Part shown: positions 6,410 to 26,240 of the stretch, piece by piece | Layout of the letters: each line of letters opens with the position of its first letter | Numbering within the stretch: position 1 is the stretch's first letter | Assembly: GCA_963769025.1 (NCBI GenBank) | Contig: CAVYKI010000006.1 | Coordinates: 1 to 64,000, forward strand | Length of the DNA: 64,000 bases | Reading direction: 5' to 3' | Origin: an uncultured Verrucomicrobiae bacterium | Lineage (GTDB): Bacteria; Verrucomicrobiota; Verrucomicrobiia; Chthoniobacterales; Chthoniobacteraceae | The notes under the pieces: model-generated | Seen by the model: the letters and a program-made list of their open reading frames with translations, nothing else | Database searches by the model: none | Told to the model about the DNA's origin: nothing | Made by a program: the position numbers and the translations under genes

Positions 6410-6519
6410 GGCTTTTCCTCCTGTGAAGGTTCATGGGTGGCCGCGCGAAGTGCCCGGCTGATTCCCATTCCTGATTCTATCACAGACGCCCGAGAAATGG
6501 AAAAGACCCCGACAGACTT

Positions 6520-6750: not shown

Positions 6751-6775
6751 GCACCGGCGCTGTTTCGGCTTTTGC

Positions 6776-8662
6776 TTAGCTTTCGATGACTTCGATGGCC
6801 ACACCGGCGGCTTCGAGAAGGTCGTAGTAACGCGCTATTGTTTGCGTCTTTGCCCGCGGCCATTTCGCTGGTCTGCGAAGGTAAAAAGCACGCGTTCTTC
6901 CGCCCGTGAGAAGGCCACGAAAAAGTTGCACTCTTCCTCGGCTGGATTGCCCTGCGGATGGTGAAAGGCGAAGTCTTCCAAGCCGAGAACGATGACGGTG
7001 TGAAACTCAAGACCCTTGCTCTTGGCGATCGTCATGATCGGGATGCTGTTCACTCCGAGAAAGATCATCGAGCGCCGCGCTCCAGTTCGGATTCCGTCCG
7101 CGCGTCTCCGCCAACGTCCGCGCGCAATCGCGAATGGTCTTCTCGAAAAAGTCGCCCTGAATATATTGCGGGTGCAGACGGCGGAACGTGGGCTGGTCAA
7201 CGAAATCAATCATCGCACGGATCAACTCGAGCACTTCCTCAATCGTCGTCGCAGCGGCGAGAGGTTCGCGAAGCGAGCCGATCATTTCGACGAGTTCGCG
7301 ACCGAGGCCGGTGGCCGAAGTTTCGTCTTCGGCCAGACCTCGTGCTTGCATGAGGATGTCGGTAAGCGCACTCCAACTGGCTGCATCCCGCGGCTGGCTG
7401 GAGAGTCGGAGAAAGGCGCACACCATGGCCGTCAGAGGTTCGGCGAGCAGGTCTTGGAGGTCGTTCTCCACCCGGCTTTGAATTTGCCGCTCTGCCAGCG
7501 CCGCACGCAGAGCTTGGGAGAATGAGTCCGCAAGTTTCCGAACGAGGATGCAGATGTCGGCAGCCGCGAGACCGTCGGCCTGCATCCATTCCTCAATCTT
7601 TCCCGCGAGATATGCAGCCTCCGTCGCGTCATCTGGAAACACCAATAGCCGACACTCACCATCGCCATCGGCACCGTCGTTAGCCGCACGCGGCATCGAG
7701 CTTTGAGGGTCGATGGATGCGATGAGGTGATGCTGGATAGCCACGAGGCGCGGGGCGGAGCGATAGTTCATCTCCAAGTCGCGCGGGCGGGCATGGAATT
7801 CGCGGCTGAACACGTCGAAGACGCCTTCCAACGCACCGGCCCAAAGCATGATGCGTTGCTTGTGGTCGCCGACCGCAGTGAGCACCGCATCCGAGCCGTG
7901 GAAAGCGGTGTGGAGAAGGCGATACTGAACCCCGTTGGTGTCCTGAAATTCGTCGAGGAATACGAATGCGTAGGTGGCCCGCAGTGCGTCCCGGATTGCA
8001 GGGTTGGAGCGCAGAAGTAATTCGGCGAGACAGCCGAGCATTTGAAAATTCACAACTGACTTCTCTCCCTCGTGCAATGCGTGCTGCCAGAACACCCAAC
8101 GCCCTTTGGCTGCCGCGTCCGCGTCTGGCGCGAGTTCGCCTGGAAGTTCGCGTCCAACCGCGTGTTTCTTGAAAAACACCCCAGCATCCACGCCTTGAAG
8201 TTGTCGCAGTGAGAGACCGGTTTCCGCGCCTGCCAGCGCATTGACCCGCTCTCGCAAGGGGGCTTTCTCGAACGTCGCGAAGTCGATCAAGTAGTCAGCC
8301 GTGGGGCGCAGTGCTTCCGGCAAGGCCAGACGGAAACGATCTACAAGGCTCTTCGCGAACGCATCGAAAGTGAACGAATTGAAGCGTCGCGCGAGGGAAG
8401 CGCCACAGCGCAGGGCCACGCGCTCGCGGAGATTCTTCGCGGCGTCGCGTTTGAAACTGATGGCGAGGATCGCTCGCGGTGCGGGGCAGAGACCGGTTTC
8501 CAAAAGGTAGCTCGCACGCTGCGCGAGCAGTTCTGTCTTTCCCGCGCCGGGACCGGCGATGACCAGAGCCGTCTCCGCGTCACGCACCGCCGCCTCGGCC
8601 TTTGGCTCCAGCGCGGTCACGCCTTGCGGAACCCATTCGGCGGGGGAAATGCGCCGGCTCAT
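6776..8662 (-). CDS. gajB: UvrD-like helicase, Gabija GajB (frameshifted near the 3' end)
   Basis: AGPGAGKT, FLDEFQDT, VGDHKQRIM, NYRS, TIAKSKGLEF, FFVAFSRA; ATGA-coupled to the OLD nuclease. Confidence 0.85.
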
Positions 8663-10683: not shown

Positions 10684-10955
10684 ATCCTGATCGGTTTAAG
10701 CGAAGCCGCTTGCATCCGCATTCCGAATCAAAATTTGGTCTCGGACATGACAAACCAGCCGCACACGCATACCCGCAGTCTGGCCGGAAAACAGTGGCAA
10801 CTCCAATAAAATACCGGGGATGCGGTCGTGTTCCAGCGAGAGTGGCACGATGGTGTTGCGGATCACGCCACCAGTTAAACGGCGCTAATGAAAAGGACGG
10901 CGAGCTGTCATCTGAGTCCAATCCACAATTCACCATTTCCGCGTATCGCGCGACT

Positions 10956-12287
10956 TCAAAGCCGCACGGGCAGAAATGGAATCCGACCCTTCCGAATTCT
11001 GCGCGGATCGTTGTCTTGGCAGGTGAGCCATCGTTCAATCTTCGCCTCAACGTTCGTGCGCTTGGCGGCATATTTTTCGCGTGAGAGGGCGATGAGTTTT
11101 TCACGTCTGCCGACGTGGTGCTCGATGGCGGCAGGGTTTGCGCGCGGAAGGCTTCGCGGGTTTGACCGTCATCGGAAAGACGCGCGATGACTTCGAAGCG
11201 GTCGAGCCCGACGAAAGTCTCCAGCGCATAGGTCTTGCCAAATTCTCGTTGCAAGACCTCGGCATCGGCATTGCCGACACGGAAGGAAATGAGGGAGCCG
11301 ACGTTGCCAAAGACTGCGCTGCGCACCGGGAGCGGCACCTGCTCGATGTATTGATGTGCGAGCGCGAGGCAGAGGCGGTATTTGCGCGCCTCGGATAGGA
11401 TGGAAGTGAAGGCGTCGGTGGTGAAATTGTGGAATTCGTCGAGGAACAAAAAGAAGTCGCGCCTCTCGTTTTCGGGCTGATTCACACGGGCCATCGCGCC
11501 GAGTTGGAACTGCGTGGTGAGCAGGCTGCCGAGAAGGTTCGCCTTGTCCGCGCCGAGTTTTCCTTTCGAGAGATTGGCGATGAAAATGCGGCCGGTATTC
11601 ATCATAAACGGAATGCTCACTTTGGTGCGCACCTGGCCGAGAATGTTTCGGACAACGGGGTTGAGCAGGAATTGGCCGAGCTTGTTTTGAATCGGCGCGA
11701 TGGCCTCGCGCTGGAAGCGCGTGTCGTATTGCTCGTATTCGTCCGTCCAGAATGCGCGCACGAACGGGTCGCGCACTTTCGCCACGATGCGGCGGCGATA
11801 GTCGGCATCGGTGAGCATCCGATTCACGCCGAGCAGGGAAGTGTTCGGACAGTCGAGCAACGCGGCGATGGCGTTGTAGAGAATGTATTCGAGACGCGGC
11901 CCCCACGAGTCCCGCCAGATGCTCTTGAATGCGCCGACAATGCCGCTGGCGACAAGATGCCGGTCGTCCGGCGCGACGTTGGCGATGAGGTTGAGGCCGA
12001 TGGGGAAGTCGAGGTCGCCGGGATTGAAATACACCAAGTCGTCGGCGCGATGCGGAGGGATGCAGTCGAGGAGTTCTTCGGCGAGGTCGCCGTGCGGATC
12101 AATCAGTGCCGACGCCGTGCCCGGCGGCAATGTGCTGCACGATGAGATTGCGAAGCAGCGTCGTTTTTCCCGAACCCGTTTTTCCGATGAGGTAGAGATG
12201 CTGCCTGCGGTCGGACAGCGAAAGGCCGACGGGATGAACCCCGCCCCAAATCTCGCGCGTGCCGATGTGTGAAAAATGTTCGTCCAT
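10956..12287 (-). CDS. VirD4/TraD-like coupling ATPase without a TM anchor (frameshifted)
   Basis: HLYLIGKTGSGKTT, IDPHGD, FLDEFHNF, SEARKYRL, AHQY, GNVGSLISFRVG. Confidence 0.85.
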
Positions 12288-12460
12288 GATGCCGGAGCCA
12301 GCCGCCACTCCTGCCTGCGAAGGGATCATTGCCCCGCGCTGCCGTGTCGAAGTTCAGCTTGGGGCAAAGATGATTCACAGACGAGACGTTGGTCTTCAAT
12401 CGCAACAACGCACGGGGGCGAGCGATTGAGGTAATGGAAGCTGGCTGCGACTTCCGACGC

Positions 12461-13399
12461 TTACGTTGCCGTTCGCCGGGAAAAACTGATGTCGCTCTGC
12501 GGAATTGAATGAACATGCCGCGTGAGGAGGGAATCGAGAAACGGGGCGGACGACACGAGAACGTCAGCGAATGCGGCGAAGTGGAAGAGTCCGGCGGCAC
12601 TGACTTGGGAACTTGCACAGTTCTTGATGGAATCGAGGCGCGCGGCGGAGGTGGTGACAGTGAGCACCTGCACGCGAGTCGCATTGAATCGCTGGCGGAA
12701 AATGTTCGTGCGCCAACTCGTTTCGTAAGCGGTGAGTTTGCGAACGATGGAAGTGCGGTGCTCGTTGGCGCTCCGCACAGGCATCGTGCCGCGGTCGGCT
12801 TCAAGGCAGTAGAGAACGGAATCCGTCGAGCCGTCCGCCTGTGTGCGCTCCAGTGCAAACACGGCATCCGGGATGACTGTGGTTCGCTCCACACCTCGCG
12901 CAGTGATGCTCCAACGCGCGGCGTCACCACGCGCCAAATGCTCAAGCTCCTCGGCGTGGCGAAGGCGGACATCGCCACGCGCACGACACGCCGTTTCCAG
13001 TGCCACAAGAATTTCGGAAATCATCAGCGCGTGGTCGAGAAACAGCCGCGTCGCGGATCGGTTGCGGGCATTCCAGTCGAGACGGACGGGCACCGAAGTT
13101 TCCGTGCGGAGCAGGAAAGCGGCACCGCGATTTCCGAGTCCACAGACCATCGCCTGCGAGCCGCCGCGATGGAAATAGTCGAGCTGGCAAAGCGGGCGCT
13201 CAATGTAGCCGTGGTGGTAGAGCTTTTGCAGCCGGCGAAGAAGCTGCTGCCGACTGCCACCGAGCAACGCGGCGATGTGATTGGAACGCAAGAAGCGATG
13301 GCGACGGAGCAGACGCAAAATCTCCACGTCGCGCGGAGTGAGTTCCATCGTCGGAAAATTTTCCGCCCGTCGAAAACGTGAATGTCTCGGGAAGGCCAT
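12461..13399 (-). CDS. Replication-relaxation (Replic_Relax) family protein
   Basis: LTPRDVEIL...wHTH, LDHALMI, PDAVF, CLEADRGT pattern; next to the coupling ATPase. Confidence 0.85.
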   Translation of the reverse strand: MAFPRHSRFRRAENFPTMELTPRDVEILRLLRRHRFLRSNHIAALLGGSRQQLLRRLQKLYHHGYIERPLCQLDYFHRGGSQAMVCGLGNRGAAFLLRTETSVPVRLDWNARNRSATRLFLDHALMISEILVALETACRARGDVRLRHAEELEHLARGDAARWSITARGVERTTVIPDAVFALERTQADGSTDSVLYCLEADRGTMPVRSANEHRTSIVRKLTAYETSWRTNIFRQRFNATRVQVLTVTTSAARLDSIKNCASSQVSAAGLFHFAAFADVLVSSAPFLDSLLTRHVHSIPQSDISFSRRTAT

Positions 13400-13439
13400 G
13401 CGCTCATTTTACCAGAGGACGGGCGAAGCTCCAAAGGCG

Positions 13440-13856
13440 TGCCCGTGCGCGTCGAGCGATAGCGGACGCGGGGCAGTGGAAATCAGAGCGGGGCGCGATT
13501 TCCTTTTCCGGCGGCGCGGCGAAGGCGATAGCCGCGCCATGCGCGAAGTCGTCGTCTGCCCGGTAGGGTGGACGAGCGCGATAGCGAAGTTGTCCTTTAC
13601 GGAAGTAGTTCCCCCAAGGTTGTCGGGTGGTGGCCGACTTCGCGCGGTTTGGTCAGGCCGTAGTGGCTAACGGAGGCTGACCCGATAGCCGGAGGAAATC
13701 GCGCGAAGTCGGGCGCTGCACGACAACCTTGGGGGAGACAGTTCACGCGGTCGTTGAGCCGCGAATCAGCCGCGCGAATTCAGCGCGGAGCTACATACCA
13801 TGTATGTAGGGCCATTTGCCGGGAGCATCCGCCCGGCTGTCCGTGATAAAGGACAG
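13440..13856 (+). other. Hairpin-dense non-coding block (candidate oriT/single-strand origin or ncRNA)
   Basis: 41-nt inverted repeat 13610-13650/13696-13736, five further consecutive hairpins, four CGATAGC copies. Confidence 0.6.
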
Positions 13857-13858
13857 GG

Positions 13859-14107
13859 CTATTTTCCGGCTGCCTTGGTCGCGTCGCGAAGAAACTTCCA
13901 AAGTTCCACGTCCAGCGCCTCCGCGATGCGGAGGAGCGTGTCCATCGTCGGCTTGCGAATCTCGCGCTCGACGAAGGAAATCATCGAGAGTGAAAGGCCG
14001 GATTTTTGGGCAAGCACGGTCATGGACATGCCGAGTGCTTCGCGGCGCTTGCGCAGCAGGGCAATGAGGGCGGAATGGATGCGGCCCCGTGACGGTTTTT
14101 TTGACAC
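13859..14107 (-). CDS. XRE-family HTH regulator
   Basis: LRKRREALGMSMTVLAQKSGLSLSMISFVEREIRKPTMDTLLRIAEAL. Confidence 0.88.
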   Translation of the reverse strand: MSKKPSRGRIHSALIALLRKRREALGMSMTVLAQKSGLSLSMISFVEREIRKPTMDTLLRIAEALDVELWKFLRDATKAAGK

Positions 14108-14145
14108 GGGCGCGAGACTACCGGAGAATTCAGTTGACGACGGAC

Positions 14146-14159
14146 TTTACTATAGTAAA
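14146..14159. promoter_or_regulatory. Palindromic operator between divergent genes
   Basis: Perfect palindrome TTTACTATAGTAAA just downstream of TTGACG (14134-14139). Confidence 0.6.
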
Positions 14160-14169
14160 TCTTTTCACC

Positions 14170-14415
14170 ATGAACATCACACGACGCATCGGCCCCGACC
14201 CGCACGCCAACGGAGTGCAAACCTCGTCGCTCCAAGGATGCCCCGACATCCTCGAACTCGAAGACGGTGACTTCGCCGTCATTGGCGTGGACATCACCGA
14301 AGCCGCCATCGGCAAGCTGCGCTTCGGCGCGGGCTGCGGGCCGGATGAACGCATCATCCGAATTCCGCGCAAGACGCTGGTGCTGGCGAAGGCGGACATT
14401 CCCGAGAGCATCTAG
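14170..14415 (+). CDS. Small hypothetical protein
   Basis: MNITRRIGPDP...CPDILELEDGDFAVIG...; clean ORF directly after the operator. Confidence 0.7.
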   Translation: MNITRRIGPDPHANGVQTSSLQGCPDILELEDGDFAVIGVDITEAAIGKLRFGAGCGPDERIIRIPRKTLVLAKADIPESI

Positions 14416-14447
14416 CCGGAAAAGCGTCAGCGCGGTATAATCCGTGC

Positions 14448-14921
14448 ATGGGAATCCTCGGATGGATTGAGGCGCACGGATTCGGTTTTTTGCAGGCGGC
14501 GAGCACGCTCGTCGGCTTTTTCGTCGCGGCATACACAATCAGGACGAACACGGTTGAACGGAAAATCGGCAACCTGTTTGAACTCACGAAGGCGCACCGC
14601 GAAATTTGGTCGCGGCTCTACGAGCGAAAGGAATTGGAGCGCGTGCTGATGGAATCGGTGAATCTTCGGGATGAACCGGTGTCAGTTGAGGAAGAATTGT
14701 TCGTCCATACGCTGATCCTGCACCTGCGAACCGCGTTCAAGGCGCGCAAACTCGGAATGCAATTCGATGATGATGCGGTCGCCGCAGACATCCGGCAGTT
14801 TTTGAGCCGCCCGATTCCGAGTGCGGTGTGGAAACGCTCAAGATTTTTTCAGGACGCCGATTTCATTGAGTTCGTCGAACGCTCCATCGAATCCCGAAAT
14901 GGCGGCAAAAGGTCAGCGTGA
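14448..14921 (+). CDS. Hypothetical protein with an N-terminal TM helix
   Basis: 157-aa ORF, hydrophobic segment FLQAASTLVGFFVAAYTI; TATAAT 6 nt upstream of the ATG. Confidence 0.75.
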   Translation: MGILGWIEAHGFGFLQAASTLVGFFVAAYTIRTNTVERKIGNLFELTKAHREIWSRLYERKELERVLMESVNLRDEPVSVEEELFVHTLILHLRTAFKARKLGMQFDDDAVAADIRQFLSRPIPSAVWKRSRFFQDADFIEFVERSIESRNGGKRSA

Positions 14922-15041
14922 TTGCGTGTCGCCAAATATATGTTTCGCGACATCGCTTCAAAATACGGCTCAACAAGGCCGTATTTTTTCGTACCGCTGC
15001 GAGTGCAACGACACGCATTCTTGACGTGACAGACAAAAGTA

Positions 15042-15072
15042 AAAGGCCAGATGGGGTTGCCATCTGGCCTTT
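15042..15072 (-). terminator. Intrinsic terminator after ardC (possibly bidirectional)
   Basis: 13-bp perfect stem AAAGGCCAGATGG/CCATCTGGCCTTT with a T-rich tail on the minus strand. Confidence 0.8.
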
Positions 15073-15091
15073 GGGATGCGGCTAGTTTCTC

Positions 15092-16045
15092 TCACGCCGC
15101 GTTGGGCAGTGCTGGTTGCTCCGTCGCTTCGCTGGCTGCGGGTGAGGCGGGTGAGACCATCGCTTCCCTGCCGAGAACGAAATCGGCAGCGCGTCCCGCC
15201 TGGTTCGCTGCCTGCACAATCCAGCGCCGATGCTCCTGCACGCGCAGTGTGTCGAGCCACCCTTGCAGGTAGGCGGCGGATTGCTCGTGCTCGTCGCGCA
15301 CAATCCCGGCCTCCATGCCGAGAAATGCCGCGCCCATTTCGGCAACGAGTTCCTCCTGCGAATACGGCTTTGCCGCCGAAGCCGTCGCTTTCGGTGACGC
15401 CTTTGCGTGCGAGCCGCGATTCGTGGCCGGTGGAATGAATCAGCTCGTGAAAGAGCGTGAGGTGGAATTCCTCCGGTGAATTGAAGCGCTCGAACGCGGG
15501 CATCTCGATGGTGTCGGTTCCGCGACGGTAGCACGCCCGCGTGGTGCGGCCTTCGCGGATGGTCGGTGGCTGCGGCATCTGCGCGACGATTTGTTCGGCG
15601 CGCGCGATGCGCTGCGAAGGCGTCGAGTTGCGGCCCGCTTTCGGCGGGCGGAAACTCGATGCCGTCAATCTGCGCGGCGTTGAAGACGCGGTAGCTCTTG
15701 AGAAAGAGCGTCGTCTTCTTGCTCCTCGCGTGCCGTCGCCGTTCTTCACGCGCTTTGTCGTGAGCGGCCGAATTTCATCACGAGCGCGCCGTGCTCGCCT
15801 TTGCGAACGCAGCCGCCGCGTTCCTGCGTCTGGCGGAAGGTCATCCACCACGGCGACGGGAAATGCAGCAGGCCGAGCAGCAGGACGTTGACGCCCTGAT
15901 ATTCGCGCCCGGTGTGAAAGTTCCGCGGTCTGCCGGTGGTGCGATTCCACGGACAGCGCCACGGAACGATGCCGCGCTCCAGGTGCGCGAGGATGCTGTC
16001 GGTGACGAGTTGATACGGATCGGTGCGAGCCGGTTTGTGGCTCAT
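15092..16045 (-). CDS. ardC: ArdC-family ssDNA-binding/zincin antirestriction protein (frameshifted)
   Basis: YQLVTDSILAHLERGIVPWRCPW...YQGVN, FHELIHSTGH, EELVAEMGAAFL. Confidence 0.88.
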
Positions 16046-16289
16046 AGGTCGGTGCTCCTTTCTGTGTGGGTTGTGGTTGCGAGGTGAAGCCAACCTCGGA
16101 GTGAGATGGGCTTCATCCCGGCAACCACGGGCACCGTCCTTCCACCATCCATCCTACCATACCGCTCCGCCTGCCGCACCAAACCGGAGTCAGAATCGAA
16201 TCACCGGCATCTCGGGTTCCAACACGAGCAGTGCGTGCCGCACTTCTTCATCGCACAGCAACGCAACCACGATGCACCAAAGCCAGTCA

Positions 16290-16813
16290 TCAAGAAGTTA
16301 TCCACACCGGCTTCCCTTTTTTCAAAGTTTGTTTCTTTTTATTCACTGTATTATTACACTGTATTATTATGTGGAAGTTTTCTTCCTGACCTCCCACGAA
16401 GACAACTTCATACCCCCCATGAAGTTTTCTTCCTACCCCCTGCGCGGTTATCCACACGCCACCGGGTGCTGAGTTCAGCCGTCAACTCCGCGGCCTGCTT
16501 TTCGAGATGCCGCATTTGCTGCGGATTTGGCATGTGCGTATTTCCCCGACGAGCGGATGGTGCGCTCGTTTTGGTTCACGATGGTGATGTGGATGTAGCC
16601 CTTCTCTTTGAGTGATCCGATGTGGGTGGAAATTTGCCGGGCACTCATTCCGAAAAAGTCTGCGAAGTAGTGGTTCGACGCAAAACAGCCCCGCTCGTTG
16701 TCGAGGCTGTGGATTTCCACGAACAGGACTTTCTCCATGAGCGAAAGCTCCTCGGAGAGCCAAATCTCTCGCGGTATCCAGACTCCCTTAAAATCGCGCT
16801 CCATACGTTCCAT
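16290..16813 (-). CDS. Phage-type wHTH replication initiator (frameshifted; 3' end uncertain)
   Basis: RDFKGVWIPREIWL...CFASNHYFADFFGMSARQISTHIGSLKEKGYI, later an NNT-NNT-type linker. Confidence 0.75.
16298..16456. other. Putative replication origin (DnaA boxes, iterons, AT-rich tract)
   Basis: TTATCCACA at 16298 and 16448; iteron-like repeats at 16374, 16398, 16421; CACTGTATTATTA x2 within an AT-rich tract. Confidence 0.7.
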
Positions 16814-16964
16814 TGACCCATCATACCGCACTCTTTCGGAATTCGGAAACCGGGCCATCTGTGGATATGTCCGCCGGTTTTCCGTGTTAGAATAATGGGG
16901 CTTGAGGGCACACGCGGCTCCGCCGGTCGGCGGTGACGCGGATTATCAGCTAACGGAACAAATC

Positions 16965-17660
16965 ATGGACAATCATCATTCCTCAGATTTCGGAAACCTT
17001 CCGAACTCTTCGGAAACTTTCGGAACGATGCCGAATGCTTCGGAACCTTTCCGCACGGTTCGGAACACTTCGGAAAAGACGGAGAATCACACCGCCACGG
17101 TGCGCGAAGTTGCGCGGCTTTTTGAACAGGCGGGGGTGCCCCGCACGGAACGAAGCATCATCAACTGGTGCCGTCCAAACCGGCAGGGCGTCGCGCGGCT
17201 CGATGCGTTTTTAGACGAAAATGAGGGGCGCTACTACATCACGCCACAAAGCGTGACACGGGCAATCGAGGAGGAGCGGGCAAAGCAGACTGCGGCGGGC
17301 AGCGCTCCGGTTGCGGAACCGGAGATGCCGAAGCGTTCGGAAACGCCGCCCCGGCAAGATGCGGGAAGCAGCGACCGGGTGAAGGAACTCGAACGTCAGA
17401 ATTTTGACTTGTTAATTGCGAATCGCGGAAAGGATTTCATTCTCGAACAGTTCCAAAAGGAGCGTTTGCGACACGAGGAGCGGCTGGTCGGAATGAGCCG
17501 CTATGTGGGCGAACTCGAAACGCAACTGCTTCAACTCGGCGGTGCCCCGCGCGGGGACCGCAGTCTTCCGCAAGCTTCGGAAGAGTTCGGAGCCACGTCG
17601 CACCGTGCGGAGACGACACGGAATGCCGAGAGTTTTCCACACGGAGGGGTTGCACTATAA
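16965..17660 (+). CDS. HTH + coiled-coil protein (candidate partition/regulatory protein)
   Basis: TVREVARLFEQAGVPRTERSIINWC wHTH-like segment, C-terminal coiled coil; divergent from Rep. Confidence 0.7.
   Translation: MDNHHSSDFGNLPNSSETFGTMPNASEPFRTVRNTSEKTENHTATVREVARLFEQAGVPRTERSIINWCRPNRQGVARLDAFLDENEGRYYITPQSVTRAIEEERAKQTAAGSAPVAEPEMPKRSETPPRQDAGSSDRVKELERQNFDLLIANRGKDFILEQFQKERLRHEERLVGMSRYVGELETQLLQLGGAPRGDRSLPQASEEFGATSHRAETTRNAESFPHGGVAL
16989..17078. repeat. Nine copies of TTC(G/C)GAAnnn at an exact 10-bp period
   Basis: ttcggaaacc ttccgaactc ttcggaaact ttcggaacga tgccgaatgc ttcggaacct ttccgcacgg ttcggaacac ttcggaaaag. Confidence 0.85.
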
Positions 17661-17678
17661 CGCATGGCGTTATACCAT
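17650..17678 (+). promoter_or_regulatory. higBA promoter with overlapping operator
   Basis: TTGCAC-17 bp-TACCAT; inverted repeat TATAACGC-atg-GCGTTATA at 17656-17674. Confidence 0.75.
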
Positions 17679-17684
17679 CAGAAA

Positions 17685-17966
17685 GTGATTCAAGATTTCC
17701 GATGCAAAGAGACGGAGAAAATTTGGAAGGGCAAAGGCTCGCGCCGGTTTCCAGCCGACATTCAGCGAGTGGCCCTTCGCAAGCTCACGCAACTCTCGGC
17801 AGCGGAGAAATTGGATGACATGCGGGTGCCTCCTGGCAACCGGCTCGAAGCCCTCAAGGGCAATCGGGCGGGCCGGCACAGCATCCGCATCAATGACCAG
17901 TGGCGCATCTGCTTCGTCTGGAAGGACGGGCAAGCGCACGATGTCGAAATCGTAGATTATCATTAA
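17685..17966 (+). CDS. higB: HigB-type RelE/ParE toxin
   Basis: PPGNRLEALKG...HSIRINDQWRICFVW...VEIVDYH. Confidence 0.92.
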   Translation: MIQDFRCKETEKIWKGKGSRRFPADIQRVALRKLTQLSAAEKLDDMRVPPGNRLEALKGNRAGRHSIRINDQWRICFVWKDGQAHDVEIVDYH

Positions 17967-17981
17967 CCCAAAATCATCACC

Positions 17982-18287
17982 ATGAGCATCAACCTCGAAA
18001 ACATGACGCCGGGAGAAATCCTCCTCGAAGACTACATGAAGCCGATGGGGCTGACGCAGAACGCGCTCGCCCGCGACTTGGGTGTGCCGCCTCGCCGGGT
18101 GAATGAAATCATCCACGGCAAGCGCGCCATCACGCTCGACACGTCGCTGCGGCTTGGCCGGTATTTCGGCCAGTCGCCGCGTTTCTGGCTGAACGTGCAA
18201 ACGGAATGCGACCTCCGCAACGCGAAGCAGCTTGTGGAACGCATCGCGCGCGAGGTTCACCCGAAGCTCGGGATGGTGGCTGCGTAG
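17982..18287 (+). CDS. higA: HigA antitoxin
   Basis: PGEILLEDYMKPMGLTQNALARDLGVPPRRVNEIIHGKRAIT...FWLNVQ. Confidence 0.92.
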   Translation: MSINLENMTPGEILLEDYMKPMGLTQNALARDLGVPPRRVNEIIHGKRAITLDTSLRLGRYFGQSPRFWLNVQTECDLRNAKQLVERIAREVHPKLGMVAA

Positions 18288-18714: not shown

Positions 18715-18804
18715 GCGCACGCTGGCTGCTTCCGGCCTCCGCCTTCCGCCACCATGCAGCCAGCGCGCCGCGCTCCGCAGTCGCTGAGCTTGGGGTCGTT
18801 CGGC
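18715..18804 (+). other. attC site, left end missing
   Basis: Stem CGCTGGCTGC/GCAGCCAGCG then GTCGCTGAGCTTGGGGTCGTTCGGC (R' core GTTCGGC). Confidence 0.7.
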
Positions 18805-18825
18805 GACTTCGCACGTCTTCACTAA

Positions 18826-19191
18826 ATGGTCACTCGCCTTCTTCCCGGAACAGAGCCATCAGCCGAGCCACCGGTTCGGCGCTTCTTCTATATCCAGCAG
18901 CCAGCAGACGGCACCCTCGACTCGATTATGACCGGTATCATGCAGCAGGCGATGGCGGCAGGCGAGACGCAGGCGGCGATACTCGGCGAGTGCGCCACGA
19001 TCACACTTCCCGATCATACCGTGCTCCAAGGCGTGTCATTCAAGACCCAGCATCCGGCGGTCGAGTCAGCCATTCAGCGTTTCTCTCAGCAGCGGCACCT
19101 TGTTTTTGGCGAGGTTATCGGCAGCGCGCTACGGCTCGGCAGCGGCGAGTCTATTCCGCTTCATCTTTGCACGGCAGCCTTCACGGATTAG
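18826..19191 (+). CDS. Integron gene cassette ORF, hypothetical protein
   Basis: Bounded by GTTCGGCGAC (18798) and its exact reverse complement GTCGCCGAAC (19212). Confidence 0.65.
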   Translation: MVTRLLPGTEPSAEPPVRRFFYIQQPADGTLDSIMTGIMQQAMAAGETQAAILGECATITLPDHTVLQGVSFKTQHPAVESAIQRFSQQRHLVFGEVIGSALRLGSGESIPLHLCTAAFTD

Positions 19192-19214
19192 TTTGCCATG
19201 CCGCAACCAACGTC

Positions 19215-19233
19215 GCCGAACCATGCGCTGCAG
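19215..19233 (+). other. Left part of an attC site, interrupted by an IS110-like element
   Basis: GCCGAACCATGCGCTGCAG followed by an abrupt switch to unrelated sequence. Confidence 0.65.
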
Positions 19234-19917
19234 GCTTTTAATCAAGTCATAAAAGCATGGGGGGACGCGCCCCGTTAGTGGCGTCATTTTTCTTTGATGA
19301 CTATCGGGGTTTGTCGTCCGGAGTCCGGGCGATGTGATGGGCGGAGTGCCTTTGGGGTGCTGGCGGGACGGGCGTCTGCGGCGGGACGGCGGACTGCGAT
19401 GACGTGTCGGGGTTCCATGCAGGCTTTGGAAGCTGGCCTTTGTGCTCACTTGCTAACTCGTCAGCTTATTAGCTTGCTGACTTGCTGACTTGGCCGCCCA
19501 GGGTCATCCTTGGGGAACTGGCGGAAATGTCGCCGGCCGCACCATTCATGCGAATCGGGGCTGGGCCCGCGGGGGCAGTTCCCCCCTTGAATCGAGACCG
19601 CCCAAGCGCATGGCCGGGTGTGTGCGGCCGGCGTTTTCCCAGTCCGCTGCGCTGCGGACGCCGGGGTCGTCAACCCTGAGCCGCGTGAGGCGGTGCCTCT
19701 TTACGCGGGCCGGCGTTCTCAGGCTGGCTTCGCCCGGTCGCGGTCGCGTCCGGGTCGGTGGCTGTGAAAAAGAGTTCGGGCTTCCATGCCTCGCGTTTGA
19801 GCCACATGCGCCACATGGCGGCGAGGATCTTGCGCTGGGTGTTGAGCCGGGCGTGGCGCACGTCGTGGGTGCGCTCGAGGCTGGCGCGGTAGAAGCGCTG
19901 CACGGCGTTGTCGCGCG
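19234..19917 (-). mobile_element. IS110-family remnant: transposase C-terminus plus ~430-nt downstream non-coding end
   Basis: NAVQRFYRASL...ARLNTQRKILAAMWRMW resembles the IS110 transposase tail; truncated by IS3; TTGATT near the end. Confidence 0.6.
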
Positions 19918-19966
19918 TGGTCTTCCCCCGAAAAAGTGGACGCGGCGAGCGCAGCGATTTGTTTGG

Positions 19967-20845
19967 TTAGTTTAGCGAGGGTTTGAGGTTTTGGAAGTAA
20001 GAGTCGAGGAAGGCGTGAGGGGATTGGTAGCCGAGGGAGCTGTGGCGGCGTTTGCGATTGTAGAAGGTTTCGAGGTAGTCGAAGACGGCAGTGGCGGCGG
20101 TGGCCTTGGTGGCGAAGGGCGCGCCGTCATCGAGGAGCTCGCTCTTGAGGGAGGCGAAGGCGCTTTCGGCGAAGGCATTGTCATAGCAGTAACCTGCGGC
20201 GCTCATGCTTTGGCGGAGGTGGTGGCGGGCGAGGAGCGCGCGGGTGGAGGCGGCGGAGTATTGGCAGCCGCGATCGGAGTGGAAGAGGGCGTCGGGCGCG
20301 ACGATGCCGGTGTCGAGCGCACGGCGCAGGGCGCCGGTGACGACCTCGGTGTGGAGGGAGTCGGCGAGTTTCCAGCCGAGGATGGAGCGGCTGAAGAGGT
20401 CGAGGACGACGGCGAGGTAGAGCCAGCCTTCGCGGGTGGGGATGTAGGTGATGTCGCTGACGAGGTGGGTGCCGGGCGCGGTCGGCGCTTCGGCCTTGGC
20501 GAGCAGGTTGGGCGAGGGATGGGCGGCGTGATCGGGGCGCGTGGTCTTTGGCCGGAAAGGCTTTCTGGGCCTGGCCCGCAGGCCGCCCGAGCGCATGAGG
20601 CGGGCGACGCGATTTTCCGAGCAGGCAAGGCCGAGGCCCCGGAGTTCGCGGGTCATCCTGGGACTTCCGTAGCAGCGGGTGTGGCGGTCGGCGTGGATGG
20701 AGTGCATGTGGGCGAGGAGTTGCGCGTTGGCCTCTTTGCGCCGGCCCGGGGCGCGTGCGGCCGCGGCGTGATAGCCGCTGCGCGAGACGCCGAGGGCCTT
20801 GCAAAGTTCGCTGATGGGAAAGGAGTGCCGCATGGAGTCAATCAA
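19967..20845 (-). CDS. IS3 OrfB DDE transposase
   Basis: YGSPRM, SDITYI, WLYLAVVLDLFSR, HSDRGCQY, DNAFAES, YNRKRRHSSLGY. Confidence 0.95.
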   Translation of the reverse strand: MIDSMRHSFPISELCKALGVSRSGYHAAAARAPGRRKEANAQLLAHMHSIHADRHTRCYGSPRMTRELRGLGLACSENRVARLMRSGGLRARPRKPFRPKTTRPDHAAHPSPNLLAKAEAPTAPGTHLVSDITYIPTREGWLYLAVVLDLFSRSILGWKLADSLHTEVVTGALRRALDTGIVAPDALFHSDRGCQYSAASTRALLARHHLRQSMSAAGYCYDNAFAESAFASLKSELLDDGAPFATKATAATAVFDYLETFYNRKRRHSSLGYQSPHAFLDSYFQNLKPSLN

Positions 20846-21174
20846 CGCATACCGCTCTGCGGCTCCTCGGAGAGTATGCTCATGGCTTTTTTTAAGATCT
20901 CACGCTGGCGGCGCAGGTATTCGACCTCGCGTTGCAGGCGGCGGATCTCCCCCGCCGCATCGGCAACGGGCGCTGCGCTGCGGCCTTTCGCCTGCGGCGA
21001 AGCGGCCTCCGCTCCGCGCCCATTGCCGAGAGCCCGATCCCGCCAGGTGCGGAGCGAGTTGGCGGAGATCCCCATTTCGGCAGCGACGCGCTTGAGCGGC
21101 CGCCCGCTGCTGAGCAGCAGGTTGACGGCTTCCTGACGGAAGTCCTTTTCATAGATGCGATGTGTTCGTGGCAT
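20842..21174 (-). CDS. IS3 OrfA
   Basis: YEKDFRQEAV...HTH...EIRRLQREVEYLRRQREILKKA. Confidence 0.92.
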   Translation of the reverse strand: MPRTHRIYEKDFRQEAVNLLLSSGRPLKRVAAEMGISANSLRTWRDRALGNGRGAEAASPQAKGRSAAPVADAAGEIRRLQREVEYLRRQREILKKAMSILSEEPQSGMR

Positions 21175-21719
21175 GTTTGCAGTTCTTTCTGACGGTCCTG
21201 CGCCTTCCCTGTCCACGGAATCGGGGGAACTTTAGCTACTCATTCGATTGAGATGCACACCTTGCATCGGATGGGAACCCCAGCTCGCTTCCTTTATGGA
21301 AAGCCATTAGCAGAAGCCGGCCTAACCCCTATGAAAGGGGTCAAGATGGAAGTTGGGTGAAGTGAGTAAATGGTTTGCTTGGGTTTGGCCGGGCGGCGCA
21401 TTGCCGGGGGCGACCGGGTCTGGGTTGGGGGTTGGGTGAGCTTGGGAACGTCTGACCCGCTCGCTTCGCCCGTATCGCCCTTCGGGTCACGCTGCGCGGG
21501 ATCTTCCGCGTGGCTCCGCCGCCGGGGTTCCGCTTCGAGGGACGGGGCTGAGGGATTCGGCTTTCGTCGCGAGCGGGGTTGGCCGGTGCGCGGCGGGTGT
21601 CACCGAAGCTGGGAGAGATGGGAGGGGCGGTTTCCGGCCCGGGGTGGCGAGCAAGGGCGTTCTCAGGGTGAGCAAGCACGTTCAAGCGTGCCGGTGCGGG
21701 GCGTGCGAGTCTCCGGGCC

Positions 21720-24700
21720 ATGTGGATCGTCCGTCTAGCACTGCGAAGGCCGCTCACGTTTGTCGTGGCGGCGCTTTTGCTGTTGCTGATGACGCCCTAC
21801 GTGCTGATCCGCACGCCGGTGGATATTTTTCCCTCGATCAATATCCCGGTGATCTCGGTCATCTGGCAGTACGCGGGGCTGAACGCGCAGGAGATTGAGC
21901 AGCGCATCCTCTACAACCACGAGCGCTCGCTCTCGGCGACGGTGAACGACATCGAGCACATCGAGTCGAACAGCTACAACGGCGTGGGCATCATCAAGGT
22001 CTTCCTCCAGCCCGGCGCGAGCGTGGATGGGGGCGTGGCGCAGATCACCGCGGTGGCGCAGACGATCCTCCGGCTGATGCCGCCGGGGCAGACGCCGCCG
22101 CTGATCATCCGTTACAACGCCTCCACGGTGCCGATCCTCCAGTACAGCCTTTCGAGCAAAAAGCTGAGCGAGCAGGAGGTCGCCGACCTGGCGCTGAACC
22201 AGGTGCGCATCGGGCTCGTGAATGTCCCCGGCGCGCAGATCCCGTGGCCCTACGGCGGGCGGCTGCGGACCGTCGTCGTGGATCTCGATCTCACCGCGCT
22301 GAAGGCGAAGAATCTGCGCGCGCAGGACATCGTCGATGCGGTGAACGCGCAGAACCTGATCCTGCCCAGCGGCACGGCGAAGATCGGCGACACGGAATAC
22401 AGCATCGAGACCAACAGCAGCCCGCGCGTGCTCGAGGACCTGAACAACATCCCGGTGAAGATGGTGAACGGGGCGACGATCTACCTGCGCGACGTGGCGC
22501 AGGTGCGGGATGGGTTCAATCCGCAGACGAACATCGTGCGCATGGACGGCCAGCGCGGCGCGCTCATCACGATCATGAAGAGCGGCTTTGCCTCCACGCT
22601 CGATGTCGTGCGGCGCATCAAGGCGCAGATGCCGCAGGTGCTGAGGACGGTGACGCCGGATCTCGACGTGAAGGAATTTGCCGACCAGTCGCTGTTCGTG
22701 CGCGCGGCGATCAGCGACGTGGCGAAGGAGGGCGTGATTGCCGCGGCGCTGACGGCGATCATGATCCTGCTGTTCATCGGTTCGTGGCGCAGCACGATCA
22801 TCATCGCCCTTTCCATCCCGCTCAGCGTGATCGCGTCGCTCATCACGCTCAGCGCGCTGGGGGAGACGATCAACCTCATGACGCTCGGCGGGCTCGCGCT
22901 GGCCGTCGGCATCCTCGTGGATGACGCGACGGTGGAGATCGAAAACGTCCACCGGCAGATGGCGATGGGGAAGCCGCTCATCACCGCGATCCTCGACGGC
23001 GCGCAGGAGATCGCGCAGCCGGCGTTCGTGAGCACGCTGTGCATCTGCATCGTCTTTGTGCCGATGTTTTTCCTCACCGGCGTCGCGCGGTTCCTTTTCG
23101 TGCCGCTCGCGGAGGCCGTGGTGTTCGCGATGCTCGCGAGCTACGTGCTTTCGCGGACGCTCATCCCGACGCTGGTGATGTGGTTCTACCGCAACTCGCC
23201 CTACCACAGCCACGAGGCCGGGGACGAAACGGACGAAGCGCCGCCGAGCGGATGGAGCGCGCCGTTCGTCCACATTCAGCGCGTCTTCGAGCGGGGCTTC
23301 GCGGCTTTCCGGAATGGTTACCGCAGGCTGCTCGGCGCGGTCATGGAGCGCCGGGGGAAGTTCGCCGTCATCTTCCTCGCGGGCTGCGTGGCGTCGTTCG
23401 CGCTCGTGCCGCAGCTCGGGCAGGACTTTTTCCCGCAGGTGGATGGCGGGCAGTTCCGGCTGCACCTGCGCGCCCGCAGCGGCACGCGGCTCGAGGAGAC
23501 GACGCGGCTCGTCGAGCGGGTCGTGCATACCATCCGCGAAGTGGTGCCGGAGCACGAAATCGGCGGCATCCTCGACAACATCGGCATCCCGTTCTCCGGC
23601 ATCGCGCTGAGCTACAGCAACAGCGGCGTCATCGGCACCGGTGACGCGGACATCCTCGTCTCGCTCAACGCCGGACACCGGCCGACGGACGAATACGTGC
23701 GTGCATTGCGCGCGCGGCTGAACCGCGATTTCCCGAGCACGACATTCTACTTTTTGCCTGCGGACATCGTCAGCCAGACGCTCAATCTCGGCCTGCCCGC
23801 GCCATTCGACGTGCAAATCTACGGACGCGACCAGACCGCGAACCGGGCCATTGCAGCGCAGCTCGCCGAGAAGATCCGCCGCGTGAACGGCGCCGTGGAC
23901 GTTCGCGTGCAGCAGCCCGCCGACCAGCCGAGGCTGACGGTGAACGTGGACCGCGACAAATCCGCCGAGCTCGGCCTGAGCGAGCGCGACGTGGCGAGTT
24001 CGGTGCTGCTCAGCCTGAGCGGGAGCGGCCAGGTGCAGCCCACGTACTGGCTGAACACGAAGCTCGGCATCCAATACACGATCAACATCCGCGCGCCGGA
24101 GCACGCAATCGATTCCATCGGCGCGCTGGAGTCGATCCCGATCAGCGGCGGGCACGCGGGGGAAGGGGACGGGCAGATTCTCACGAATGTCGCGACCTTC
24201 GAGCGCGGGCAGGGGCCGCCGGTGGTCTCGCATTACGACGTGCTGCCGGTGATCGATATCTTCGGCGGCGTGAGCGGACGCGATCTCGGCGGGGTGGTGC
24301 GCGACATCCAGCCGCTCATCGAAGAGGCAAAGAAGGATCTGCCGCGGGGCAGCTTCATCGTCGTGCGCGGGCAGGCGGAGACGATGAAGAGCAGCTACAT
24401 CGGCCTCGGCATCGGCCTCGTGGTCGCGATCGTGCTCGTGTATCTGCTGCTCGTGGTGAATTTCCAGAGCTGGCTGGACCCGCTCATCATCATCAGCGCG
24501 CTGCCCGGGGCGCTCGCGGGCGTGGTGTGGGCGCTGTGGGTCACGCACACGACGCTCAGCGTGCCGGCCCTCATGGGCGCGATCATGAGCCTCGGCGTGG
24601 CGACTGCGAATTCCGTGCTCGTGGTGAGCTTTGCCCGGACGAATCTGCGCGAAGGTGTGCCGGCCGTGGACGCCGCGCTCAACGCGGGATCCACCCGGCT

Positions 24701-24947
24701 CCGCGCCGTGCTGATGACGGCGCTGGCGATGATGATCGGCATGCTGCCCATGAGCCTCGCCCTTGGTGAAGGCGCGGAGCAAAACGCCCCGGTCGGCCGC
24801 GCGGTGATCGGCGGCCTTCTGCTAGCGACGATCGCGACGCTGCTTTTCGTGCCGGTGGTCTTCGCCATTTTCCACCGCAATACCAAACACACTCCTCCGG
24901 CGCCGGAAACCGATTCCACCCGCGAGCCGGAACTCGCCCTTCACTGA
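21720..24947 (+). CDS. RND efflux permease (AcrB/AcrD/AcrF family)
   Basis: 1075 aa, ALRRPLT start, LAVGILVDDATVEIEN, RLRAVLMT. Confidence 0.95.
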   Translation: MWIVRLALRRPLTFVVAALLLLLMTPYVLIRTPVDIFPSINIPVISVIWQYAGLNAQEIEQRILYNHERSLSATVNDIEHIESNSYNGVGIIKVFLQPGASVDGGVAQITAVAQTILRLMPPGQTPPLIIRYNASTVPILQYSLSSKKLSEQEVADLALNQVRIGLVNVPGAQIPWPYGGRLRTVVVDLDLTALKAKNLRAQDIVDAVNAQNLILPSGTAKIGDTEYSIETNSSPRVLEDLNNIPVKMVNGATIYLRDVAQVRDGFNPQTNIVRMDGQRGALITIMKSGFASTLDVVRRIKAQMPQVLRTVTPDLDVKEFADQSLFVRAAISDVAKEGVIAAALTAIMILLFIGSWRSTIIIALSIPLSVIASLITLSALGETINLMTLGGLALAVGILVDDATVEIENVHRQMAMGKPLITAILDGAQEIAQPAFVSTLCICIVFVPMFFLTGVARFLFVPLAEAVVFAMLASYVLSRTLIPTLVMWFYRNSPYHSHEAGDETDEAPPSGWSAPFVHIQRVFERGFAAFRNGYRRLLGAVMERRGKFAVIFLAGCVASFALVPQLGQDFFPQVDGGQFRLHLRARSGTRLEETTRLVERVVHTIREVVPEHEIGGILDNIGIPFSGIALSYSNSGVIGTGDADILVSLNAGHRPTDEYVRALRARLNRDFPSTTFYFLPADIVSQTLNLGLPAPFDVQIYGRDQTANRAIAAQLAEKIRRVNGAVDVRVQQPADQPRLTVNVDRDKSAELGLSERDVASSVLLSLSGSGQVQPTYWLNTKLGIQYTINIRAPEHAIDSIGALESIPISGGHAGEGDGQILTNVATFERGQGPPVVSHYDVLPVIDIFGGVSGRDLGGVVRDIQPLIEEAKKDLPRGSFIVVRGQAETMKSSYIGLGIGLVVAIVLVYLLLVVNFQSWLDPLIIISALPGALAGVVWALWVTHTTLSVPALMGAIMSLGVATANSVLVVSFARTNLREGVPAVDAALNAGSTRLRAVLMTALAMMIGMLPMSLALGEGAEQNAPVGRAVIGGLLLATIATLLFVPVVFAIFHRNTKHTPPAPETDSTREPELALH

Positions 24948-24953
24948 CCCATC

Positions 24954-26240
24954 ATGAATGCCCGAACCGAATCACTCGACGGCCCGACCGGTGCGCGACT
25001 AGCCTCGGGCGTGCCCGAACCATCGGAACCCGCCGGAGCTTCTTCGCATCCGCACGCCGCCACGCCCGGGCCGAAGCCCTCCGGGCCGCGACTTGGCCGT
25101 CTGCTTGTCATCATGCTGATCGTTGCTGGGGTCGCGTTTGCCGTGGGGCTCATCCCGCGCCTGAAGGAACGCGCGACCGCGAAGAAGGAGACGCGCGAGC
25201 TGGCGTTGCGGACGGTGGATATCACGTTCCCGGCACCCGCGAAGGCTGCGCCGCCGCTGCAGTTTTCCGGTGAGGTGAAGCCGCTCGCCGAGGCGGCCAT
25301 CCATGCCCGTGCGAGCGGTTACGTGCGGCGCTGGCTCGTGGACATCGGCGCGCACGTCGAGCAGGGCCAGCTCCTCGCCGAAATCGACACGCCGGAGATC
25401 GACCGCGATCTCGCGCAGGGGCGCGCCGAACTCGCGCAGGCCGAGGCCGCCCGTGCGCTCGCGGAGACGACCGCGAAGCGCTGGAGCGAAATGCGCACCG
25501 CAAAGACCGTGAGCCCGCAGGAGGCCGACGAAAAGATTGCCGATCTCGCGCTCAAGAAAGCGATTTTCGACGGTGCGAGCGCCAAGGTGCAGCGGCTCGA
25601 GGAGATGGTTCACTTCAACAAGATCACCGCGCCCTTTGCCGGGACGATCACCGTGCGCACGCTCGACGTGGGCCAGCTCGTGGGCAACGCCGCGGGCCGC
25701 GAGCTTTTCCACATCGTGCAGGCGGACAGGCTGCGGGTGTTTGTCCGCGTTCCGCAAAATTACGCGCGCGCCGTGACCGTCGGACAGACGGCGGAACTCG
25801 TGTTCACGGAGCTCCCGGGGCGCACGTTCGACGCGAAGGTGGTGCGCACCGCGGGGACGATCGATGCGTCTTCGCGCACGCTGCTCACCGAACTGGAGGT
25901 GGACAATTCGAAGGGCGAGCTGCTCGCCGGGAGCTACGTGCAGGTGCGCTTCAAGGACGCAAGGCTCGACGCCGTGCTGTCGATTCCCGCCAACGCGCTG
26001 CTTTTCCGAAACGAAGGCACGATGGTGGGCGTGGTCGGCGACGACAACCGGGTCGCCATGAAAAAGGTCGTCATCGGCCGGGACTTCGGGCCGACGGTCG
26101 AGATCGTGGAAGGCGTCACCGCGAAGGATCGCGTGATCCTGAATCCGCCCGATTCGCTGGTGGACGGAGCGGAGGTGCGCACGGTGAAGCAGTCCGAAGT
26201 TGAAAATAAGTCCGCTTCGTCGCCCGGGTTGCCGCATTAA
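24954..26240 (+). CDS. RND periplasmic adaptor (membrane fusion protein)
   Basis: ARASGYV...DIGAHVEQGQLLAEID, ITAPFAGTIT. Confidence 0.93.
   Translation: MNARTESLDGPTGARLASGVPEPSEPAGASSHPHAATPGPKPSGPRLGRLLVIMLIVAGVAFAVGLIPRLKERATAKKETRELALRTVDITFPAPAKAAPPLQFSGEVKPLAEAAIHARASGYVRRWLVDIGAHVEQGQLLAEIDTPEIDRDLAQGRAELAQAEAARALAETTAKRWSEMRTAKTVSPQEADEKIADLALKKAIFDGASAKVQRLEEMVHFNKITAPFAGTITVRTLDVGQLVGNAAGRELFHIVQADRLRVFVRVPQNYARAVTVGQTAELVFTELPGRTFDAKVVRTAGTIDASSRTLLTELEVDNSKGELLAGSYVQVRFKDARLDAVLSIPANALLFRNEGTMVGVVGDDNRVAMKKVVIGRDFGPTVEIVEGVTAKDRVILNPPDSLVDGAEVRTVKQSEVENKSASSPGLPH

Follow-up and report, generated by a model that had tools for sequence, protein, structure and literature searches.

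A right-end remnant of a divergent IS110-superfamily element, probably RNA-guided, in an attC-like site of a Verrucomicrobiae genome

We analyzed a 64,000-nt stretch of DNA from an uncultured Verrucomicrobiae bacterium (assembly GCA_963769025.1, contig CAVYKI010000006.1, positions 1 to 64,000 of the forward strand), hereafter the window, and found that its positions 19232-19917, on the minus strand, are the right-end remnant, ~690 bp long, of an insertion sequence (IS) of the IS110 superfamily that measures ~1.57 kb. From homology, from the junctions, and from the conservation and co-variation of guides and helices among related copies, this remnant is very probably the right end of an RNA-guided element with an IS1111-type layout, lying in an attC-like site. 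An earlier note, made from the letters of the window alone, had proposed an RNA-guided recombinase remnant programmed against the attC family of this lineage, and the junctions, guides and relatives described below support that proposal. Each of the three observations that the note had listed as fatal to it went the other way.

Extent of the remnant and its relatives

In blastn comparisons with three related loci (L001-L003), the match is continuous from the transposase tail through to the junction. The last base of the element is 19232, or 19234 if the CT core that it shares with the target is assigned to the target, and its terminus, TTGATTAAAAGCCT, is common to the window element and 16 related copies. 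What is left of the element comprises the final 70 or so codons of the transposase gene (19712-19917, minus strand; residues 308-377 of 379, as placed by tblastn, translation and homolog sequences) and a 3' non-coding region of ~475 nt, or of 436-475 nt according to the stop codon chosen. The transposase frame of the window overshoots the stop of its homologs by ~13 codons (19670-19711), and we attribute this continuation to 19670 to a small indel near the C-terminus.

On its other side the remnant is truncated by an IS3-family element (19918-21234, minus strand; orfA 20842-21216, orfB 19967-20899; Pfam rve, HTH_21 and HTH_Tnp_1). The flanks of this element are GCG and GCT, and since they differ there is no target duplication. 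The transposase gene is not resumed beyond it (21235-21719), where there is unrelated DNA followed by an acrB-type gene, and a tblastn search for the remaining transposase found no other piece of the gene in the window. A deletion adjacent to the IS3 insertion probably accounts for the loss of the first 307 transposase residues, of the left end and of the distal half of the target site. The window copy lacks transposase and left end and is therefore immobile by itself; it is a dead remnant. A blastn search of 19150-19966 against plasmids gave no match.

The window fragment corresponds to residues 308-377 of one homolog of the family (P0003; tblastn, 86% identity; homologs are ~379 aa long), is 99% identical to a second (P0002, 158 aa; tblastn), and falls outside the PF02371 domain itself, so that its family was read from longer proteins. 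With the 82-residue tail as query, 61 longer proteins, mostly of 365-382 aa, were obtained at E ≤ 0.01 (114 candidates), and 58 of the 61 carry PF02371. Three full-length homologs pass the PF02371 model with 42-48 bits against a cut-off of 21.3, and align end to end with the IS110 model NF033542 (1-343). Five residues, D23, E70, D108, D111 and S275, are invariant across 45 aligned homologs and lie outside the window fragment; we take them to be the catalytic DEDD acidic residues and serine that are reported for IS621. Against solved structures, the family profile reached the IS621 transposase only marginally (E = 0.04), with S275 aligned to the serine of ESG, and a single-sequence search of the same structures (PDB) gave no match. 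Among plasmid-borne genes, the nearest relatives reach 23-30% identity and bear the annotation 'IS110 family transposase' (39 records). Because the full-length homologs carry IS110 features, the fragment is best classed, by sequence, as IS110-like and from a divergent branch, and the earlier description of an IS110-like transposase tail on the minus strand is borne out through these homologs. Separate, more typical IS110-family genes were also seen in two of the related loci, at 840-1853 in L015 and at 2605-3258 and 6564-7655 in L020.

Scanning the family alignment against one genome per species yielded 20 loci (L001-L020), 17 of them, judged by record title, from metagenome-assembled genomes (MAGs) of Verrucomicrobiota. 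The right-end motif is found in register in 16 copies from 15 loci, after exclusion of five off-register chance matches to the motif. The other five loci lack a right end: in L005, L008 and L009 the sequence stops a few hundred nt past the gene, L018 is truncated, and in L017 a right end was looked for and none was found. In each of these 16 copies the element ends as TTGATTAA[A/G]A[G/A]CCT and the flank begins directly after it, and a GTTAGRY-like box lies 10-11 nt from the junction in all 15 copies with at least 14 nt of flank. The left-end motif occurs in register 18 times, 17 of them with flank, and in all 17 the flank ends in GTTNNCT (GTTGGCG in L010) immediately before GAG(T/C)CGTC. The earlier note had suggested asking whether other copies insert at the same attC position, and in attC-like repeats they do: position and orientation are constant in 16/16 right junctions and in 17/17 left junctions with flank. 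CT(G) is common to the target and the joined ends and acts as a core, with no further duplication.

Twelve elements are complete, and ten of these have lengths of 1489-1698 bp; L015 (2332-5201) is longer, at 2870 bp, because it carries an IS3-family insertion, and L020, at 1113 bp, has an internal deletion. The rve insertion in L015 lies within the transposase gene near residue 116, and that of the window near residue 307. The relatives have ~475 nt from the stop codon to the right end and less than 100 nt before the start codon. The best inverted repeat between their ends is TTAAT(C), of 5-6 bp, present in 9 of the 12 complete relatives at positions 10-15 of the left end and 7-12 of the right end; its right-end counterpart in the window, a sub-terminal TTAATC, is at 19238-19243 (no strand assigned).

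Two further features of the related loci were noted. An AAT(T/C)GGGG-like motif of the left end recurs, directly oriented, ~45 nt inside the right end, as AATTGGGG in L004 (1520-1535), as AATCGGGG in L003 and as ACGGGGCG in the window (~19262-19275), and may be a protein-binding site. The L002 contig (2712 nt) behaves as a circle, in that its 1579-bp IS copy leaves one end of the contig and resumes at the other; the remaining 1133 nt hold a single alpha/beta-hydrolase open reading frame (ORF) on the strand opposite to the IS. This circular form may be a repeat assembly artefact or an excised cassette carrying the IS.

The attC-like target site

The insertion point in the window lies 10 nt beyond an R''-like box, GCCGAAC (19215-19221), within what appears to be the 5' part of an interrupted attC-like site (19201-19231, plus strand) downstream of a 121-aa ORF. 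The site was delimited from its match to L002 and from the flanks of the relatives: the right half of the L002 site is identical to window 19202-19233 at 30 of 32 nt, and 15 relatives have flanks homologous to that of the window. The left half of the L002 site agrees with window 18780-18808 at 28 of 29 nt, at a second, uninterrupted attC-like site (18746-18804, plus strand; GTTCGGC box at 18798-18804). Between the two sites lies the 121-aa ORF (18826-19191, plus strand), which belongs to no family and is cassette-like, with GTTCGGC before it and GCCGAAC after it. A fuzzy search of the window for further intact target sites found none, and loose scans for pairs of R boxes were uninformative.

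The organization of such sites can be followed in L004, which has eight repeats of ~125-132 nt with RTCTAAC...GTTAGRY ends. The repeats are spaced 284-555 nt apart where free of IS copies, with single small ORFs between them, all on the strand opposite to the IS, and two of the repeats are each occupied by an IS copy. Of three L004 repeats that were folded, two give attC-type hairpins in which outer and inner boxes (R and L) are paired and bulges are present (z = -4.2 and -2.0); the third, folded on both strands, does no better than shuffles. The two IS copies (L004 1-4112) are near-identical and sit in attC-like sites of the same array, 2.5 kb apart, with two small ORFs between them.

It is conceivable, if rather unlikely, that the element is as described and its target belongs to another family of palindromic intergenic repeats that resembles attC, either REP-like or of the integrase-less attC-like cluster type. 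No PF00589 integrase was found in the scanned ORFs of the window (26 picked ORFs and 54 more, the latter being 48 of the 77 ORFs of at least 230 aa and 6 shorter ones), nor in 44 of the 73 ORFs of at least 200 aa in the locus flanks. The window itself offers one and a half sites; the complete site is degenerate and has no folding advantage over shuffles (z about 0), and the half site has an R box, GCCGAAC, that deviates from RYYYAAC at one position. The surrounding 5-19 kb, moreover, resemble a mobilisable island (relaxase, coupling-protein-like gene, primase, Gabija, HigBA) and not a classical cassette array. Against this alternative stand the ends, the spacing and the single same-strand small ORFs of the L004 repeats, the hairpins formed by two of the three folded, and the cassette-like ORF of the window between its two boxes. 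The locus flanks extend at most 4 kb, so that a more distant integrase would escape, and integrase-less attC clusters are a recognised category (PMC7923331).

We therefore retain the label attC-like because of the repeat architecture and the organization of the L004 array, and treat integron membership as putative. The earlier statement that the element ends exactly inside an attC stands to this extent: it ends inside an attC-like site, and no neighbouring integron integrase was among the ORFs scanned.

Candidate guides and RNA modules in the 3' non-coding region

The non-coding region holds two short matches to the junction. TGCAGGCTTT, a 10-mer at the junction (19229-19238), is repeated at 19418-19427, and the reverse complement of the flank 9-mer CCATGCGCT (19221-19229), AGCGCATGG, is found at 19605-19613. 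Both matches, as well as a 12-bp stem (19531-19542/19622-19633), are just where the earlier note had placed them. The chance expectation, which that note had left uncomputed, was estimated from 5000 dinucleotide shuffles of 19249-19711 set against a 40-nt probe spanning the junction: direct matches of at least 10 nt appeared in 1.6% of the shuffles, inverted ones of at least 9 nt in 4.8%, and both together in 0.06% (3/5000). The window alone thus provides moderate evidence, and the weight of the case comes from the relatives.

When the last 520 nt of 17 copies are aligned, four conserved blocks appear, interrupted by variable hairpins. A profile of the core RNA has a single match in the window (19386-19641, E = 3.8e-26) and 20 matches in 19 of the 20 loci, downstream of the transposase-homologous segment. 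From these blocks and their helices, the region probably encodes a bridge/seek-type RNA of two modules on the minus strand. Module 1 (19531-19633), which resembles a target-binding loop, is closed by the stem P1 (19622-19633/19531-19542) around a variable hairpin, and reads in order one P1 strand, the 5' loop strand CCCGGCCAUGCGCUUGG, the variable hairpin and the 3' loop strand CCCGAUUCGCAUGAAUG. P1 is formed in the copies with correct anchors, and its cognate strand pairs have a summed duplex energy of -298.6 kcal/mol, compared with -190.7 ± 18.4 after permutation of the partners; none of 20000 permutations reaches the observed value. One further alignment, in which the 3' strand of P1 was off by one column in one subgroup, was not used for pair counts.

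Module 2 (19412-19518), which resembles a donor-binding loop, is closed by the helix P3 (19514-19518/19412-19416; GUUCC with GGAAC) and contains the 5' loop strand CCCAAGGAUGAC, the hairpin P4 (19492-19495/19435-19438) and a 3' loop strand that includes AAAGCCUGCA. P3 is possible in all 17 copies, the inner hairpin is predicted in 17/17, and the cognate energy sum of P3 is -136.6 against -100.1 ± 7.2 when permuted (0/20000 permutations reach it). The P4 loop of the window contains an insertion of ~50 nt (19440-19490, no strand assigned; alignment columns 481-530, filled in the window row only), which holds tandem and palindromic repeats of the AAGTCAGC type and is absent in the other 16 aligned copies.

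The 9-mer at 19605-19613 (minus strand) is, as far as sequence comparison goes, the right target guide: its RNA, CCAUGCGCU, is complementary to positions 3-11 of the flank (window 19229-19221), and it tracks the flank across copies. The complementarity of the guide to its own flank is exact over 9 nt in the window, L002 and L003, and over 11 nt in L001, where an additional guide base is mirrored by an additional flank base. Over 16 copies, the longest exact stretches of complementarity between a guide and its own flank add up to 107, compared with 81.6 ± 6.4 when the flanks are permuted (P = 1.5e-4). A left target guide is suggested, and no more than suggested, by the pentamer UUCGC (19550-19554, minus strand), which lies in the 3' loop strand of module 1. 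The window has lost the target of this candidate; among 14 relatives, the corresponding pentamer is identical to that of the left flank in 9 (7/12 and 2/2). Exact-match scans for a left target guide of at least 6 nt gave nothing consistent.

The 10-mer at 19418-19427 (minus strand) appears to be mainly a donor guide. Its first 8 nt, AAAGCCUG (19420-19427), repeat the 6 terminal nt of the right end together with the CT core and a G, and its final 2 nt (19418-19419) match the target flank. The identity run of this segment to its own right end is 7-9 nt in 17/17 copies, and the right-end variants AAAGCC, AGAGCC and AGAACC are each paired with a matching guide. The two RNA bases that follow are constant, and the start of the flank varies between copies. 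Because the segment follows the right end and the next bases stay constant despite varying flanks, we read the 10-mer as an 8-nt left donor guide followed by two bases that agree with the most frequent flank; that these two bases act like the 'handshake' bases of IS621 is speculation. A candidate right donor guide, AGGAUGAC (19503-19510, minus strand), has its partner in the left end, which is deleted in the window. In 12/12 relatives with a left end, 6-8 of its 8 positions pair with left-end positions 3-10 (G-U pairs counted), and the left end is too invariant for covariation with it.

The guide roles implied in the earlier note are thus kept for the 9-mer and revised for the 10-mer, of which only the last 2 nt match the target. 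A quite improbable alternative would make the 10-mer a second target guide that reads the occupied junction. The window 10-mer does match 3 nt of flank besides 7 nt of element, and the GC after the core in the RNA is constant and equal to the commonest flank start, GC. Yet where the segment varies, at two positions, it varies with the right end in 17/17 copies, the post-core GC of the RNA is unchanged where the flank starts with GT, GG or TC (L010, L012, L014-L016), and the last base (A or C) conflicts with the flank in L002, L003, L004 and L013.

The placement of the guides also differs from the earlier description, in which the 10-mer lay almost wholly in the loop of a TTCCA/TGGAA hairpin. 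That hairpin exists, but P3, a conserved helix of longer range, competes with it and is the one present in the minimum-energy fold of the window; each of the two modules is enclosed by a stem and holds its guides in an internal loop, not in a simple hairpin loop. Covariation, which the earlier note had proposed to examine, is seen in that the segments occupy fixed places in the alignment and vary together with the DNA that they match. That note had also allowed that part of the 9-mer could be an ordinary stem, and in the window fold 6 of its nt do pair with CGCAUG, on the opposite loop strand, but this pairing is apparently lost in the L004 and L014 groups (alignment judged by eye, uncounted). 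That both matches are chance or ordinary RNA/DNA stems, in a region serving as a 3' untranslated region or a protein-binding end with no guide role, is highly improbable: the single matches are only moderately unlikely and the stem just mentioned would fit, but the joint chance is 0.06% and both segments keep their place in the 17-copy alignment while changing with their DNA partners.

Several results weigh against a right end of an RNA-guided element in an attC-like site. For the protein, the minus-strand frame 19670-19966 matched no Pfam or NCBIfam model, even at E = 10, and the NF033542 scores of the full-length homologs, 70-90 bits, lie below the NCBIfam cut-off of 140. For the RNA, the fold of the window is not more stable than shuffles (z = -1.08), and RNAalifold on MAFFT alignments returned almost no consensus structure, because the variable hairpins misalign. 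Rfam at its gathering threshold gave no family in the whole window, and permissive E-values on 19150-19950 gave only a chance microRNA match; a scan detected promoter-like sites on neither strand and, on the strand of the RNA, no terminator-like site either. For the guides, 12 of 16 copies have an imperfect target guide, whose longest exact run with the own flank is 3-8 nt, the candidate left target guide is only 5 nt long, and the permutation tests of guides and helices ignore shared ancestry. The integrase missing from the scanned ORFs and the degenerate second site of the window, both given above, belong to the same side. The non-coding DNA that the earlier note had called structured, at ~430 nt, is 436-475 nt long, and its status as structured rests on helix conservation, not on folding energy.

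If the favored reading of an RNA-guided IS110-superfamily element holds, its history and mechanism might be as follows. The element would have integrated in fixed orientation at the CT(G) core, 10 nt from the attC-like R box and downstream of the 121-aa ORF, and the later IS3-family insertion with its adjacent deletion would have removed residues 1-307, the left end and the far half-site. In the intact element, the RNA would be transcribed and bound by the transposase. The 9-nt guide of module 1 (19613-19605) would pair with the top strand of the right target flank, with a probable 5-nt left-flank guide in the same loop, and the 8-nt guide of module 2 (19427-19420), carrying right end and core sequence, would pair with the bottom strand of the donor, with a probable left-end guide in the same loop. 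By analogy with IS621 and ISEc11, the RNA would join the circularised element and the target for strand exchange catalyzed by the DEDD/serine recombinase.

Relation to known systems and genomic setting

Elements that combine RNA guidance with attC targets have been described before. In the IS1111 family a seekRNA is placed downstream of tnp, and ISKpn4, ISPst6 and ISPa25 are elements that target attC (PMC11187229). The present family shares with these attC-targeting elements a transposase gene followed by a long 3' non-coding region, an orientation-specific insertion at one end of attC-type sites, and a duplication limited to the shared core. It also shares the order of the guides, with the top-strand-complementary RNA segment 5' of the bottom-strand-matching segment, an order given for the IS1111-family seekRNA as top-strand match 5' of bottom-strand match (PMC11187229). 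The target module, 74-130 nt long, is comparable to the seekRNA of 82-96 nt reported there for attC-targeting IS1111 elements (PMC11187229). Bridge RNAs of the IS1111 group have been predicted at scale, in the right end (PMC11208160). 'IS1111-attC group' is reportedly a label of Tetu and Holmes (2008).

The family differs from attC-targeting IS1111 elements in several respects. Its transposase is very distant, the best plasmid-borne relatives at 23-30% identity being annotated only 'IS110 family'. Its sub-terminal inverted repeats are 5-6 bp long, compared with 11-13 bp in attC-targeting IS1111 elements (PMC11187229) and with 7-17 bp for IS1111 in Durrant et al. (PMC11208160), and are thus shorter than either range. 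The terminal extensions are about 9 and 6 nt, compared with 7 (left) and 3 nt (right) (PMC11187229). The hosts are mostly Verrucomicrobiota MAGs, as counted above, and the attC family is lineage-specific.

IS621 offers a second comparison. The left guides of its bridge RNA have top-strand sequence and pair with the bottom strand, and the right guides pair with the top strand (PMC11208158). The RNA described here is similar in having two stem-enclosed loops with candidate guide pairs, one for the target and one for the joined ends, and in its strand logic, since in each pair one guide carries the sequence of the top strand and the other its complement. The CT core and the conserved DEDD residues and serine are likewise shared. 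Unlike that of IS621, which lies at the 5' end, the present RNA lies at the 3' end, the order of the guides within each loop is reversed, and the long guide reads the right target. There is, moreover, no Rfam match, and the similarity of the proteins is marginal (E = 0.04 with the profile, none with a single sequence). Group IIC-attC introns, which insert into attC sites of cassette arrays (PMC3001079), are also RNA-guided mobile elements specialised on attC in one orientation, but they are retro-elements with a ribozyme and a reverse transcriptase, and have no sequence or mechanistic relation to DEDD recombinases.

RNA-guided elements of the IS1111 type that target attC are therefore already known, and the present family is a new, divergent and distant relative of them. 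No paper on such elements in Verrucomicrobia was among the matches listed in a full-text literature search. The combination of a 3' RNA, very short sub-terminal repeats, both guide pairs in simple internal loops and a reversed order could be taken further. On this bolder and doubtful view, the elements would form a third, deep-branching lineage of bridge-RNA recombinases, neither strict IS110 nor IS1111, attC targeting would have evolved independently in Verrucomicrobiota, and solo remnants such as that of the window would program the transposase of intact copies in trans, shaping cassette arrays.

The IS remnants lie at the edge of a mobile-island-like gene set (5492-18287), adjoining an acrB/HlyD efflux operon (21720-26240). 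The genes of the island include a DnaG-type primase (5492-6409), a weak TraG/TrwB-like ATPase (10610-12130), a Replic_Relax relaxase (12464-13399), an ArdC-like metallopeptidase (14970-15962) and a HigB/HigA toxin-antitoxin pair (17664-18287). A complete Gabija pair is also present (7007-10683, minus strand), with GajA at 8659-10683 (PADLOC E = 3e-245) and GajB at 7007-8662 (E = 3e-175). Elsewhere in the window, at 47637-53618 (plus strand), an ORF of ~1970-1990 aa consists of degenerate repeats with a 96/192-nt periodicity and has no Pfam match at 1e-5.

For annotation, the finding accounts for a ~690-bp 'non-coding' stretch and marks a small attC-like cluster bordering a mobile island. DEDD recombinases with RNA-guided attC targeting appear to reach as far as soil Verrucomicrobiota, by way of a transposase lineage only 23-30% identical to annotated IS110-family genes. 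The related copies form a natural reprogramming series, in which target and donor guides change with lineage-specific sites and ends, and such series help to define the guide rules for bridge RNAs of the IS1111 type, rules that are less well understood than in the case of IS621. The main value of the finding lies in this natural series of co-variation between guides and sites.

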